Shown here in pieces: positions 7,132-12,045 of a DNA stretch of 64,000 bases. This stretch comes from Terriglobia bacterium. Lineage in GTDB: Bacteria; Acidobacteriota; Terriglobia; 20CM-2-55-15. The stretch lies in NCBI GenBank assembly GCA_965198225.1, contig CBDAOY010000009.1, positions 448,001 through 512,000 on the forward strand, given 5' to 3'. The position numbers and the translations under genes are program-made. The notes under the pieces are model-generated. The model did not search any database. It was not told the DNA's origin and saw only the letters and a program-made list of their open reading frames with translations. The first letter of the stretch is position 1; the number at the start of each line of letters is the position of its first letter.

Positions 7132-8754
7132 GGTTATGTTTCAGAGTTTCTGCAAAAAGGTCCTGAAATAGGAAAGGGCCAGGGTATCTCCGAAAAGTTG
7201 GTAACGAATCAACTTTGAAACGAAGGAGATGAACCGATGGCCCGACCTCAGATTAAGCGAAAGGGAGTGGATTGGAAAGAACTGTTAGGAGAGGAAAAGG
7301 ATTTGCTGAAAAGCGTCGTACAGGAGGTGGTTCAAGAGATTCTCGAGGCGGAGATGGACCAGGTCGTGGGCGCGGTCAAGAGTGAACGAACAGGGGGTCG
7401 CACCGGATATCGGAGTGGCTATTACGGACGGGACCTGGTCACACGGGTGGGCAAGCTGGAGTTGCGCGTGCCGCAGGACCGGGCCGGCCGGTTCAGTACG
7501 GAGGTGTTTGAACGCTACCAACGCAGCGAGAAAGCCTTGGTGGCCAGCTTGGCCGAGATGTACGTGCAGGGCGTGTCAACGCGCAAGGTGAAAGCCATCA
7601 CCGAAGAACTATGCGGACATTCGTTTTCGGCCAGCACGATCAGCCGGATTAATCAGACTCTGGACAAGGAGCTGAAAAAGTTTGCAACGCGACGATTGGA
7701 GGAAGAATACCCGTACCTAATTTTGGATGCGCGCTACGAGAAGGTGCGCGAAGACGGGGTCATCCGGAGCCGGGCGGTGCTGGTCGCGATCGGAATCAAC
7801 TGGGACGGCCGGCGCGGTGTGTTGGCGGTGGAGCTGGCGGGACGGGAAAGCACGACCAGTTGGCGGCAACTGCTGCTGAGTTTAAAACAACGCGGCCTGT
7901 GCGGGGTGGAGTTCGTGGTGACCGACGATCATCCGGGGTTGAAGAAAGCCATCGCGGAAGTCCTGACCGAAGCGATCTGGCAGCGCTGCTACGTGCACTT
8001 TCTCCGAAACGCATTGGATTATCTGCCGCGCAAAGGCGATGACGATTGCCTCCAGGAACTGCGTTGGCTCTACGATCGGCGGAACCTCCAGGAAGCGCGG
8101 CAGGACCTCGCGGCGTGGTTGAGCAAGTGGGGGCAGAAATATCCCAAACTCTGCGACTGGGTCGAAGACAACATCGACGAGACGCTGAGCTTCTACACGC
8201 TGCCGCTTCAGCATCACAAGCACATGAAATCCACCAATATGCTGGAACGGCTCAACGAAGAGATCAAGCGGCGAACGCGTGTGGTGCGGATATTCCCCAA
8301 CGCGGCCAGCTGTCTGCGTTTGATTCGGGCACTGACCACCGAGATGCACGAGAACTGGATCGAAGCGATCCGTTATTTGAACATGGATCTGTTGAAGGAA
8401 CACAAGAAGGACTGGCACCGTCAGACGCCTGCCGCGTGAACGCGTCAAAACGGACCGACCCAAGGATCGGCTCGGAAGCCGATCGTCGATTACAGCGCAT
8501 CCTGGAGCGAGGAATCTCTGTGGAAAACTTTCAAAGGGCGAAAGAAAGAGAACCAAAAAAGAAAGAAAGGCAGAGGCCTGATGGAAATGACGCCTCAGAG
8601 GAAATCCGCAACAAGACGCGGATTCCCTCTGAGGCTTGGAAAAGCTTCGCCAAGAACGTTCAGCTTTCCCACATTCCCACAGGCCCGACGGCGATCAACA
8701 CTCAAGAACTGACTTTTTCGGAAATACTTTTTGCAGAACTTGACGCACACAACT
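7132..8754 (+). mobile_element. Complete IS256-family insertion sequence (1623 bp)
   Basis: Imperfect 28-bp TIRs GGTTATGTTTCAGAGTTTCTGCAAAAAG and (rc) AGTTGTGTGCGTCAAGTTCTGCAAAAAG; 8-bp TSD TGATTGTG at 7124-7131 and 8755-8762. Confidence 0.92.
7237..8439 (+). CDS. IS256-family (Mutator-like) DDE transposase
   Basis: 400 aa; LRVPQDR, MYVQGVSTRKV, LDARYEKVR, TDDHPGL, WQRCYVHF, STNMLERLNEEIKRR. Confidence 0.97.
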   Translation: MARPQIKRKGVDWKELLGEEKDLLKSVVQEVVQEILEAEMDQVVGAVKSERTGGRTGYRSGYYGRDLVTRVGKLELRVPQDRAGRFSTEVFERYQRSEKALVASLAEMYVQGVSTRKVKAITEELCGHSFSASTISRINQTLDKELKKFATRRLEEEYPYLILDARYEKVREDGVIRSRAVLVAIGINWDGRRGVLAVELAGRESTTSWRQLLLSLKQRGLCGVEFVVTDDHPGLKKAIAEVLTEAIWQRCYVHFLRNALDYLPRKGDDDCLQELRWLYDRRNLQEARQDLAAWLSKWGQKYPKLCDWVEDNIDETLSFYTLPLQHHKHMKSTNMLERLNEEIKRRTRVVRIFPNAASCLRLIRALTTEMHENWIEAIRYLNMDLLKEHKKDWHRQTPAA

Positions 8755-8853
8755 TGATTGTGCTCGATCCCGACGGAGCTGGGTACCTTTCGGGGATGAC
8801 GACAGCCCGTGCGGACGAGGTGACTCCAGTACGAAACAATTGAATCTCTCGGA

Positions 8854-8875: not shown

Positions 8876-9314
8876 CAGGTGCGCCGGGCATGGCACGCCA
8901 ACCGAAGGTAGGAAAGCCACCGTGATCGGACGGAAGGCGAACGCCAACAAGGCAAGGGCAGTCTCAGAGATGGGATGTCCGGAGGAAGCATGAGGCAGAA
9001 CTCGTGTACGTAGCGAACAGCGAACCGGCTAGATGGGTGCCCGGAGGGGGGCGAGCAGGCTTGAGAGAGCGAGCCCCGATATTCGATCGGAGTTACCGAA
9101 GGGAGCTGAAGCCGGACGGGATACGAGGAGGGGGCGTGTCTTACCCCGGGAAGCCCTACTGCTTCGATGTCGGGACCCACAGCGGGTGCGCCCGCCCAGG
9201 CGCTCAAAGGACATTGGGTTATCCAGTCCGCCGTGACCTGACGTTCGAAAACCGAGCCGCGAACGGCGATTCCGTAGCGGGCAGGGAGCAGAGGGTGGCA
9301 GATCCATGGATAGT

Positions 9315-10236
9315 GCGTGCCTGGCAGCACGCGTTTCCGGCGGGTTAAAGTCCCGCTCGGCCCGAGGCCACGGGTCGATATCCAACAAGTGGGGGTAATG
9401 CCTCACTGGCCGAAGTGTAGACAGGTAGTGCAGATGCCTAAACGGGCACGAAGGCGAAAGCCGGATACGGCCAAGGCAAAGCTGGAGCCAGCTACGGAAA
9501 CTTTGGAGGGCAGGGCGCCCACCGCGAGGTGGGGTCTGAAGGGCATGAGGAGAACCACCGGGTCGTAATCGACGGGAGCCATCCCGAGGATGAACCGGTC
9601 GGCCAAAGATGGGGAATGGTCGAGCCCGCACTATTGGGGCGAAGGCGCATTGGTTCCACCCCATCGCACCAAGGTGTGTGCGGGCGACACGGTGGAGAAG
9701 AGACGCGAGTGACCCAGGGAGGCCTGGTATCGTCCGAGCGGAAGGTAAGGTCGAGATGATGTGGCACCCGCAGACGAAAGGGCGGGCAACCGAGAAGACA
9801 AACATCGACCTAGAGCCCTGCGCGGTAGGTGCGGATATAAGCGAGAGCGAAATTCCGGCCGACGCGGTGTCAGGAATCGGATCGGGGAATAGTACTCAGG
9901 AACGAGACGGCAAACATAAGGTCTCGGATCGTTGCTTCGAGCAGCGGCGCTGGCGGGTCCAAAAGGCCCGTTGGAGGGGGAAGTCCCCGTACTCAGTCGT
10001 GAATGTGCGAGCGATGGGAAACGCGGAGATATCGTGGAATTGGATAGTTCCCTTAGCGAAAGACCCAAACGCGGTACGAACGAAGCCGCCACCTGCCGCC
10101 ACACAGCGAATTCCGAACGAGGAGCAACTGAGGAAAGCGGCTTGCGGGAAAACCGCACGAGCCGTTTGATTGAGCGGACGGTGGAAGGGCAACTGAGGAG
10201 ATTGAGCCCGACCAGCCCGACCACTTTCGACTCTAC
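9315..10236 (+). ncRNA. ORF-less group II intron nested in domain III of the outer intron
   Basis: 5' GCGTG then CCTGG (9320-24) pairing with CCAGG (9714-18); DIII CGGGGAATAGTAC...GAAGTCCCCG; DV AAAGCGGCTTGCGGGAAAACCGCACGAGCCGTTTG (10134-10168); 3' end TTCGACTCTAC. Alternative 5' end is GTGCG at 9313. Confidence 0.85.
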
Positions 10237-10254
10237 ACTGAGGACTCAGGGCCG

Positions 10255-11871
10255 ATGAAGCCTGGCAACAGTGCGGAGGATAAAACCCTGACGACCGGGA
10301 AACAAAGAGAGGAACGGGCGCCCTGGCAGCAGCCGGAGCAACTGAATCTCTGGGACAACCCGGACGGCCGGAGATCGCCAACCGGCGGTGGGAAGTCATG
10401 GACGAGAGGCGAGAGTGACACCGACAGGGAGTCGACTCAGTGGATGGAGCAAGGGGCCCAGAAAGCCATCGGGGGCGGCGAGTTCCACATGGGCGCCGAG
10501 GCGGAAAACCGCCGCGGTCATCAGCCGTCCGGGTCCGGCGACAACGCCAACCACCCCCGGCCATCCCTGGCGGAAGACAGTCACGGAGGAAGTGAACTGA
10601 AAGTTGTTGGAGTGATGAAACGGGTCTACGACCGGAGGCGACTGGTTCAGGCGTGGCAGCAGGTACGGGCCAACGCCGGAGCCGCCGGGGTGGACAACAT
10701 GACGGTCGAAGCCTTCGGGGAAAGAGAGGATGAATTTCTCTCACTCATCCACGACAAGCTGAAAGCCGGGACATACCGTTTCAAGCCCGCAAAGAGGGTT
10801 CTGATCCCCAAGCCGGGCAGTTCGAAGAAGAGGAAGCTGGGTATTCCCGTCGTGATGGACCGTGTGGTCAGTCAGAGTCTCCATGCTGTGTTGACGGAAA
10901 TCTTTGAGCCGGACTTCAGCGGGTCCAACTTCGGGTTTCGGCGTGGTAAGAGCCAACACCAGGCCATTCGCCATGTGCGGGAAGCCGTGATGGAGGGCTA
11001 TGAGTGGTGTGCATCCCTCGACATCCAGAGCTTCTTCGATGAGATCCCCCACAACCTGATCCTCAAGCTCATTCGACAGAGAATCCGAGATGAGCGGCTC
11101 GTTACGTTGATCGTGCGGGTGCTGAAGGCAGGAGTTGCTGTGGATGGTGTTATCGAGAAGACGGATCAGGGATGTCCCCAAGGCTCCCCGGTCTCGCCGG
11201 TCCTGTCCAACATCGTGCTCAATGAGCTCGACCAGGAACTGGAACGGCGGGGACACCGGTTCAGCCGGTGGGCCGATGATTTCGTCATCCTGTTGCGAAC
11301 GGAGCGGGCGGCTCTACGGGTGATGGAAGGTATCACACGATTCCTCGAAGAGGAACTCGGACTGCGCGTCAACCGGGACAAGAGCCGCGTGGCCCCGATC
11401 AAGGATGTGGAGTTCTTAGGATTCCAGATCCTGCGGGGTCAGATTCGGGTGAGTACGCGGGCGCGGAAGCGCTTCGTGCAAGAGGTCCGATCCCGGACAC
11501 GGCGGAATAACGGGCTATCGATGCACCAGGTCATTGGCGAACTCAACGAATATCTTGAAGGATGGGTCGGGTATTACCGCATCCAGGAGTTCCGGAAGAT
11601 CTTCCAAGAGCTAGATGGATTCATCCGTAGTCGGCTCCGGTCCATGCAGTTGAAGAAGTGGAAGAAGCCGGCGAAGTTCCAGCGGATGATGATTCGCGCC
11701 GGCGCCCCGGTGTATTACGCCCGCCGAACCTGGGTGCGGATGAAGGCGTGGCAATCCGTCATGCGGCGGGAGGTCCGTTTCGTCCTGAGCCTGGAGTGGT
11801 TTCGGAGCCAGGGACTCGTCTTTCTCCACGACTTCGCGCAGCGGAATCTCAAACTGGAGTTTGCTCGCTGA
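10255..11871 (+). CDS. Group II intron reverse transcriptase/maturase without an endonuclease domain (true start probably downstream of 10255)
   Basis: AWQQVRANAGAAGVD, IPKPG..RKLGIP..DR, NFGFR, GCPQGSPVSPVLSNIVL, RWADD, LRVNRDKS; X domain GWVGYY; no HNH. Confidence 0.95.
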   Translation: MKPGNSAEDKTLTTGKQREERAPWQQPEQLNLWDNPDGRRSPTGGGKSWTRGESDTDRESTQWMEQGAQKAIGGGEFHMGAEAENRRGHQPSGSGDNANHPRPSLAEDSHGGSELKVVGVMKRVYDRRRLVQAWQQVRANAGAAGVDNMTVEAFGEREDEFLSLIHDKLKAGTYRFKPAKRVLIPKPGSSKKRKLGIPVVMDRVVSQSLHAVLTEIFEPDFSGSNFGFRRGKSQHQAIRHVREAVMEGYEWCASLDIQSFFDEIPHNLILKLIRQRIRDERLVTLIVRVLKAGVAVDGVIEKTDQGCPQGSPVSPVLSNIVLNELDQELERRGHRFSRWADDFVILLRTERAALRVMEGITRFLEEELGLRVNRDKSRVAPIKDVEFLGFQILRGQIRVSTRARKRFVQEVRSRTRRNNGLSMHQVIGELNEYLEGWVGYYRIQEFRKIFQELDGFIRSRLRSMQLKKWKKPAKFQRMMIRAGAPVYYARRTWVRMKAWQSVMRREVRFVLSLEWFRSQGLVFLHDFAQRNLKLEFAR

Positions 11872-12045
11872 TCGAAGAGCGGCTTACCTGGCCGGTACGA
11901 GCCGTTCTGTCCGGAGGGGGTGAGGGTCACTTCACCTCCTACCGGGATTTGGACCTGACCGCAGTACAATTCCGACACTCTCACAGCGCAATCGCCATGC
12001 GACCGAAGCGGTCCATGCGGCAGGTGGAGTCGTGAAAGATTACCG

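Follow-up and report, generated by a model that had tools for sequence, protein, structure and literature searches.

Group II introns lying within other group II introns (twintrons), and homing of one such intron into another, are already known, and as far as the accessible parts of the papers describe the bacterial, archaeal and plant cases, the insertion sites are the open reading frame (ORF) or the dispensable domain IV (DIV) of related introns. In Methanosarcina acetivorans, group II introns are described in part of a review as homing repeatedly and site-specifically into group II introns, with nested arrays as the result (PMC4424553); in the TeI3/TeI4 twintrons of Thermosynechococcus elongatus, according to the portion of the paper on these elements, the target of ORF-less introns is DIV of TeI4, at a point separating the first two ATGs of the ORF carried by the host, and the inner copies are identical and the outer ones diverged (Mohr et al. 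2010, PMC2882425). The lycophyte mitochondrial intron cox1i1149g2 is presented, in the part of its description available, as a self-invading hypermobile intron inserted in its own dispensable domain IV, a degenerating 'zombie' twintron (Zumkeller et al. 2020, PMC7049729), and red-algal twintrons are likewise assigned a DIV site in the accessible text (PMC4476101). Here we describe a 922 nt ORF-less group II intron at 9315-10236 of a 64,000-nucleotide stretch of a Terriglobia bacterium genome (contig CBDAOY010000009.1, positions 448,001 to 512,000; this whole stretch is 'the window'), which sits in domain III (DIII) of an outer group II intron we call H3. We consider it highly probable that the inner intron is an ORF-less derivative of a reverse transcriptase (RT)-encoding family whose exon-binding site 1 (EBS1) is set against the DIII internal loop and which homes into introns; it apparently targets, almost exclusively, this conserved catalytic-core loop of other group II introns and of its own copies.

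The ends of the inner intron were fixed by copies of itself and by an empty site. A blastn search of the inner element against its own genome (6.4 Mb, 9 contigs) revealed four self-nested copies with the junctions ...GGGGAATAGT^GCGTGCC...CTCTAC^ACTCAGG (carets mark insertion points throughout), and a 1842 nt contig from run X9 carries the outer intron without its insert, joining 9314 to 10237 unambiguously across 922 skipped nucleotides, with 255 letters on the shorter side. Because the four nested copies are inserted exactly after the element's own AATAGT, its ends are GCGTG...CTAC, and a GTGCG at 9313, considered as an alternative 5' splice site, is excluded by them as well as by the empty-site joint. 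An earlier sequence-only reading of this DNA had favoured the GCGTG end at 9315 and had named self-nested copies as a supporting result; the 5' end is indeed 9315, and such copies do exist at the element's own AATAGT^AC. With the insert removed, as in the empty-site contig, the host is continuous, and it has an Rfam D1-D4 match (RF02001, group D1-D4-3, at 8961-9139, 67 bits), an RT ORF, a domain V (DV) and a domain VI (DVI), the arrangement of a twintron. Homology to a second H3 copy on C6, 99.6% identical, begins at 8879, and contigs from other runs diverge from the window at 8879 and 11950. Inside the inner element, the minimum free energy (MFE) fold of 10125-10236 predicts a DV with a 13-bp helix and a 2-nt bulge at 10135-10167, its sequence closely resembling the outer intron's DV, and a DVI whose bulged A at 10230 would lie 7 nt before the 3' end ...CTAC; a weak second D1-D4-3 match (24.5 bits) was returned by Rfam for 9518-9625.

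In its own genome the inner element family is represented by 20 5' ends and the same number of 3' ends. The 5' flanks end in ATAGT (15), GTAGT (3), GTAAT (1) or ATGGC (1), and all 20 3' flanks begin with A (AC 17, AG 2, AA 1). Four of the 5' junctions lie inside the family's own DIII, and 14 of the 16 non-nested junctions occur 91-291 nt downstream of an Rfam D1-D4 match (RF02005 eight times, RF02001 and RF01999 three times each), so that 18 of 20 are in recognisable group II introns or in the family's own DIII. Counted from the side of the hosts, the element follows 14 of the 31 D1-D4 matches examined in this genome. A further copy (C9:984278-984700) belongs to another subfamily, with the 5' end GTGTGCTGAGCAGCGC like most metagenome copies; it is inserted at gagcccATAGT^ in a D1-D4-6 host and looks truncated after approximately 80 nt.

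The same habit was found well beyond this genome. With the family RT as query against a single genome of each species, 19 related loci at 49-94% identity were identified in metagenome-assembled genomes labelled Terriglobia, Desulfobacterales, delta proteobacterium, NC10, Alphaproteobacteria, Nitrospinota and others; the 5' junction was placed in 11 of these (ATAGT 5, GTAGT 5, GTAGG 1), seven of which have a D1-D4 match just upstream (groups -2, -3, -4, -6), and all 13 readable 3' flanks begin with A. Metagenomes were scanned with the EBS1 hairpin pattern, giving at least 120 stretches, 80 of which were made into loci. With an nhmmer profile built from alignment columns 1-100, 67 of the 80 junctions could be placed, where a simple regular expression had given 8; 10 of the remaining 13 had no match or too little upstream sequence and 3 were cut by a contig end. 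Among the matches listed, a scope that applies to all metagenome counts given here, 55 of 67 junctions end in RTAGT, 65 flanks are distinct, and the 5' ends are GTGCG (44), GTGTG (18) or GCG-type (5). The sequence context expected around the joining segment between domains II and III (J2/3) and DIII is present at 57 of 67 junctions, compared with 9.9% of random genome 30-mers, and in the 20 loci scanned with Rfam, from 37 with at least 450 nt upstream, 12 have a D1-D4 match within 300 nt upstream. The DIII habit is general across several phyla and metagenomes. Copies inside other introns at RATAGT^AC, which the sequence-only reading had named as support, occur in the window's own genome, in relatives and in metagenomes, and none of the contrary outcomes it had named beforehand (unrelated targets, a 5' site at 9313, ACTATT outside the loop) was encountered. 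A second genus of the same family is represented by genome G020 (L031, L032), whose copies are 96-100% identical and again lie downstream of D1-D4 matches; the nested pair recurs there in the same host. This near-identity, nested pair included, suggests either recent transfer or a shared mobile region.

The target can be read against the Rfam consensus RF01998, which runs stem-CAUAGUA-hairpin-GAAG-stem, and the element enters on the 5' side of the DIII internal loop, at CAUAGU^A. Hosts share one layout. J2/3 (AGA or GGA) leads into 6-8 variable nucleotides and RUAGU^A; an upper hairpin and GAAG come next, and the closing 3' strand is the complement of the variable nucleotides. The basal stems vary in sequence but stay complementary (CCGCGUC/GACGCGG, CUGGCUG/CGGCCAG, UCCGCUC/GGGCGGA, CUGCCUC/GGGGCAG, CUCCGGC/GCCGGGG), with 7 of 7 positions pairing in 5 of 18 hosts compared with 1 of 304 mismatched controls in a rigid, ungapped 7-nt test. 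For the inner intron's own DIII, RNAalifold recovers the basal stem unaided and leaves AAUAGU predicted as unpaired; in a 12-sequence alignment the observed covariation of the five-helix structure was reached in 0 of 500 shuffles, and pairing falls from 93% to 32-52% in slid controls. The loop reads AATAGTA in the window's own family and in L033, L035, L036 and L037, and is CGAGGTA-like or otherwise diverged in seven relatives. The class C (IIC) intron of Oceanobacillus iheyensis has the same DIII loop motif.

The other side of the pairing is the hairpin at 9624-9640, which the sequence-only reading had described, along with its loop ACTATT (9630-9635), the upstream flank GATAGT (9309-9314) and the self-target AATAGT^AC (9888-9895), at coordinates that all proved correct. 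The six bases GATAGT, taken as intron-binding site 1 (IBS1), pair with ACTATT at 6 of 6 positions (5 Watson-Crick and one G-U), and ACTATT is the sole 6-mer within 9315-10236 able to do so by Watson-Crick or G-U pairs. The hairpin is kept in 12 of 12 aligned family members, with a stem that is 100% paired and shows one compensatory change (GCCU/AGGC in L047), and its loop is ACTATG in nine relatives and the full-length own-genome copy; the window copy has ACTATT, and a single relative AGTATG. Own-genome ACTATG copies lie at CATAGT (3), CGTAAT (1) and GATAGT (1), ACTATT copies at GATAGT (8), AATAGT (3), AGTAGT (1) and CGTAGT (2), one nested copy being too diverged to read. Over own genome, relatives and metagenomes, C occupies exon position -6 in 68 of 78 ACTATG copies compared with only 2 of 18 ACTATT copies (Fisher p = 1e-9, with copies within one genome not independent, L038 omitted as a duplicate of L037, and L041 without a junction). 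On this comparative sequence evidence the loop at 9630-9635 is the EBS1, being conserved on a covarying stem, with a sixth base that follows position -6 and, in a sister intron, a sequence that has changed together with the target. The claim that EBS1 is aimed at a conserved DIII motif, the element's own included, holds in the behaviour of this loop across the alignment and in targets that are overwhelmingly intron DIII; the label 'Id3' for the hairpin denotes its position and behaviour only. A C at intron position 2 (GCGTG or GCGCG) was seen at 5 of 67 metagenome junctions (L088, L100, L115, L127, L140), in 3 of 4 ACTATT loci versus 2 of 63 ACTATG loci; G1-C2 together with the loop bases GC 5' of EBS1 could extend the helix across the splice site.

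The sister intron, in genome G032, is 77% identical to the family across the 5' part of domain I and has the loop CCAAAG in the homologous position, complementary at 6 of 6 positions to its 5' flank CTTTGG. Its target is a 12-copy repeat, TCGGGACTTTGG^ACA (L020 minus strand, L052-L063), with 2 copies occupied and 10 unoccupied; an initial assignment of this target to a variant DIII loop was dropped, the repeat not being visibly an intron. The G032 intron is a retargeted branch of the same lineage. In the window's own genome, one host family of four copies has an occupied member (C6:1005278) that reads CATAGT^AC and three empty members (C6:296099, C5:570185, C8:78668) that read CATACTAC, a G to C change at -2 that would break a pair with EBS1; this variant may be a resistant allele.

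These observations bear on whether a protein or a DNA structure mainly chooses the site (for example by recognition of the domain II hairpin and J2/3, comparable to the use of terminator hairpins by class C introns), with EBS1 in a minor role. Several features of the family would suit such a mechanism: the pairing comprises no more than 6+1 nt; hosts of near-identical inner copies differ freely in the 6-8 nt that separate J2/3 from IBS1, indicating that there is no adjacent IBS2; 57 of 67 metagenome flanks share a conserved RGUC-NNN context 12-20 nt upstream; and the RT has no endonuclease domain. However, the upstream context is conserved in the hosts for reasons of their own, so its presence is no proof of recognition, and the G032 sister switched all six loop bases along with its target, position -6 follows the sixth base of the loop, and the three empty copies of one host differ from the occupied copy by the change at -2. 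We therefore regard selection of the site mainly by protein or structure as very unlikely.

Occupancy within host families also bears on the choice between active homing and passive spread, in which duplication, recombination and hitch-hiking with hosts after a few old insertions would account for the distribution and no active DIII homing would take place. Signs of recombination are present: three arrangements (C5:812868, C4:150750, C5:3834) are nested pairs minus one arm, and some hosts are chimeric, with a 5' flank from one host class and a 3' flank from another, both of which point to recombination between copies. Several units of host H1 plus inner element are moreover 100% identical, as passive duplication would produce. 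Against this stand at least nine different 5' flanks in the own genome, the 65 distinct flanks among the 67 metagenome junctions, hosts from four Rfam D1-D4 groups entered at a constant loop position, and the existence of empty sites, both in the H3 of run X9 and in a host family of eight copies of which one is occupied and seven are intact and empty (CATAGTAG). Passive spread as the whole explanation is, in our judgement, scarcely credible, and homing into the DIII loop remains the reading adopted here.

The family has its own source of RT. Two full-length copies of 2154 and 2153 nt (C6:343788-345941, inside the second H3 copy, and C5:501714-503866) contain a 479-codon open frame with RVT_1 (E = 2.3e-33) and GIIM (E = 1.2e-19) domains and no endonuclease domain; the product is 39% identical to the RT of the H3 host, which also has no endonuclease domain by Pfam. 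The RT/maturase ORF in DIV, absent from the window copy, is thus present in its siblings, and the RT source need not be the host intron. Every ORF-less copy aligns by blastn to the 2154 nt sibling at 1-796 and 2048-2154, lacking exactly 797-2047, which indicates one deletion that then spread. The sequence-only reading had proposed a non-autonomous family that homes into DIII and had called for a search for its RT-encoding relative; the homing into DIII stands and the relative was found in these siblings, which means that the family is not purely non-autonomous and that the window copy is a deletion derivative. Under the mechanism we propose, the family EBS1 (loop ACUAUK) would pair with the 5' side of the DIII internal loop, YRUAGU^A, and this complementarity would let it retrohome both into itself and into group II introns from several structural classes, with twintrons and nested arrays as the outcome and with the full-length siblings presumably supplying the RT/maturase that moves the ORF-less copies in trans. 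Reverse splicing into DNA, mobilisation in trans, splicing from the GCGUG end and any cost to the host are points we infer from established group II intron biology.

Several results weigh against this interpretation. The first concerns specificity: the own genome contains 118 intact ATAGTAC 7-mers, approximately 16 of them in the family's own DIII, and of the roughly 100 outside introns none is occupied, where the pairing spans only about 7 nt; something beyond EBS1, or selection after insertion, must therefore restrict the sites. The window-only match is itself not significant, since 65% of 5000 mononucleotide shuffles of the element contain at least one 6-mer able to pair (11% contain ACTATY), and the hairpin alone proves nothing. 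Pairing is imperfect at some own-genome junctions, with mismatches at -6 in 3 of 19, a mismatch at -2 (paired at -6) at C5:503866, and insertion at GATGGC at C5:3834. No host intron was recognised upstream of 2 of 20 own-genome junctions (C8:158737 and C5:3834), and an Rfam intron match is lacking upstream in 4 of 11 relatives and in 8 of the 20 metagenome loci scanned. The rigid stem test gave scores of 5 or less in 10 of 18 hosts, although it fails on short stems, bulges and chimeric or truncated hosts; H3 is among the ten, scoring 4 of 7, and its stem CCA(T)GG/CCTGG requires one bulged T. As to the identity of the inner element, the window copy and all 20 genome copies begin GCGTG rather than GUGYG, and curated covariance models score it below their gathering thresholds (RF02001, 24.5 bits against 32; RF02003, 15 against 49), as RF00029 does a sibling copy (33.4 against a cut-off of 40). 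Finally, no splicing or mobility was observed: contigs X1-X3 from metatranscriptomes cover the inner element, with depths that cannot rank expression, in libraries where DNA may be present and where gaps in cover carry no information, and the only RNA-library contig that joins 9314 to 10237 is discounted because the same joined form occurs in run X9, which contains 0.89 of the stretch's words and is probably DNA.

The empty non-intron sites would also be explained if EBS1 reverse-spliced into host-intron RNA at the exposed DIII loop, the insertion being fixed by reverse transcription during retrohoming of the host or by recombination. Intron sites would then be used and the ATAGTAC sites elsewhere left empty with no need for extra DNA determinants, and composite units of host plus inner element with 100% identical flanks do occur at several loci. 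Yet of the eight copies of one host only one is filled and the other seven stand empty, and the two H3 copies that are 99.6% identical carry inner copies only 96.7% alike; both findings agree with independent insertions into DNA copies already in place. Retrohoming as established has DNA as its target. We consider an RNA route unlikely, and favour homing of the family into the DNA of resident introns.

Features of the two introns are collected in Table 1. The window copy has 18 extra nucleotides near 10190, in the distal part of DVI, relative to most other copies (18 nt are 'left out' in a contig), and a 3' probe made from it matches other copies over the last 22-27 nt only. Contigs of runs X1, X2 and X9 start or stop exactly at 9893/9894, the self-target site, as would follow if those samples contained both nested and un-nested copies.

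Table 1. Positions in the window of the outer intron H3, the inner intron and their parts (domain names as in the text)
Feature	Position	Strand	Details and basis
Outer group II intron H3	8879-11949	+	5' GTGCG; 3' end approximate, 11948-11950
Host J2/3, AGA	9300-9302	+	Same layout in other hosts, covarying stems, RF01998 consensus
Host DIII basal stem, 5' strand	9303-9309	+	As in other hosts and RF01998 consensus
Host DIII internal loop, 5' part, ATAGT	9310-9314	+	IBS1 GATAGT is 9309-9314
Inner ORF-less group II intron	9315-10236	+	922 nt, 5' GCGTG...CTCTAC 3'; self-nested copies and empty-site joint
EBS1 hairpin	9624-9640	+	GCCC-GC-ACTATT-G-GGGC; stem GCCC/GGGC; EBS1 ACTATT 9630-9635
Inner intron's own DIII	9883-9989	+	Three upper hairpins; RNAalifold, covariation, nested copies
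Inner DIII basal stem	9883-9887 / 9985-9989	+	CGGGG / CCCCG; 100% paired, 2 compensatory changes
Inner DIII internal loop	9888-9894 opposite 9980-9984	+	AATAGTA opposite GAAGT; AAUAGU predicted unpaired by RNAalifold
Self-target AATAGT^AC	9888-9895	+	Four nested copies inserted after positions equivalent to 9893
DIV deletion scar	10109-10112	+	Full-length positions 797-2047 (RT ORF) absent; blastn of 2154 nt sibling
Inner DV	10135-10167	+	AGC in basal helix, 2-nt bulge; MFE fold
Inner DVI	10172-10233	+	Bulged A 10230, 7 nt from 3' end; MFE fold
Rest of host DIII	10237-10284	+	Loop A, hairpin CTGAG-GA-CTCAG, GATGAAG, 3' strand CCTGG; read from sequence
Host RT/maturase ORF	10618-11871	+	417 aa; Pfam RVT_1 E = 9.5e-35, GIIM E = 2.8e-19
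Host DV	11876-11908	+	MFE fold
Host DVI	11910-11946	+	MFE fold

In each of three different 5' flanks a GC-rich hairpin precedes the outer intron by 7-8 nt (7 nt in the window), although a terminator scan upstream of the outer intron called none. Further 5', downstream of a 400-aa ORF (7237-8439), comes a 55-nt segment (8700-8755) with nine further copies in the genome, all 100% identical; 7237-8755 is probably the end of an insertion sequence just upstream of the outer intron. A 58-nt near-perfect hairpin at 8585-8642 gave only miRNA look-alikes far below threshold in Rfam. Elsewhere in the genome, the hosts H1 and H2 start within tens of bases of the DV-DVI of another intron lying before them (RF00029 matches; L005 520-600, L010 426-560, L012, L014), so that head-to-tail stacking of introns, or nesting at the 3' end, also occurs here.

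The pattern of alleles invites a more speculative view, possible but in our estimate doubtful, in which the family is a hyperparasite engaged in an arms race over a catalytic-core loop. The invader would exploit a DIII motif that its hosts can hardly change; some hosts would escape by variants such as CAUACUA in place of CAUAGU^A, and many invaders would protect themselves by a diverged DIII loop of their own (CGAGGUA and similar). In the window's subfamily, an EBS1 change from ACUAUG to ACUAUU would match its own AAUAGU perfectly and so permit self-nesting, and occupancy of DIII would regulate the host. If this were true, splicing and mobility of the host would hinge on splicing of the invader, that is, host retroelements would be regulated by it, and a natural brake on host-intron mobility is possible. 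The system also offers a natural case of a retroelement whose niche is other retroelements, a test system for what supplements short EBS1 pairing in target choice, and evidence that a recently proliferating family can tolerate C as its second intron base. In practical terms, automated annotation misreads about half of the own-genome group II introns unless nested copies are removed first, as the 14 of 31 D1-D4 matches followed by the element illustrate.

By class, the inner family resembles IIC introns in its RT without endonuclease domain, its short exon pairing with no evident EBS2 and its weak RF02001 match, and the outer H3 may resemble them in sitting after a GC-rich hairpin; unlike IIC introns, the inner family lies in DIII loops and not after terminators. 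No DIII-targeting intron lineage was found in the searchable literature, though an earlier description may exist, for instance in intron database papers. What appears new is a whole lineage aimed at a conserved motif of the ribozyme core that is common to several structural classes, present in several phyla and on more than 100 metagenome contigs.

Among the described systems the nested introns of M. acetivorans are one of the closest. To go by the title of a 2003 paper by Dai and Zimmerly, its targets are reportedly the ORFs of related introns; here the homing site is not in a related intron's ORF, and unlike the site that title implies it is a conserved DIII core loop upstream of the host ORF, found in different Rfam D1-D4 groups, in the invader itself and across many phyla. 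Nested arrays and recombination derivatives are present here in four nested junctions, the arm-less arrangements and the chimeras, and as in the part of the review that treats M. acetivorans, RT-encoding members occur alongside ORF-less ones, homologous recombination trims the arrays and the hosts provide a perpetual homing site (PMC4424553). With T. elongatus the family shares ORF-less deletion derivatives, which according to the available part of the paper are mobilised there by the RTs of related introns (PMC2882425) and here presumably so, but that insertion, as described in the same part, is in DIV and within one related family, whereas here it is in DIII of hosts from at least four Rfam D1-D4 groups. 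Like cox1i1149g2, in the portion of its description at hand, the window's family places a group II intron within a copy of itself; unlike it, that self-insertion is one expression of a lineage-wide preference for a conserved core motif.

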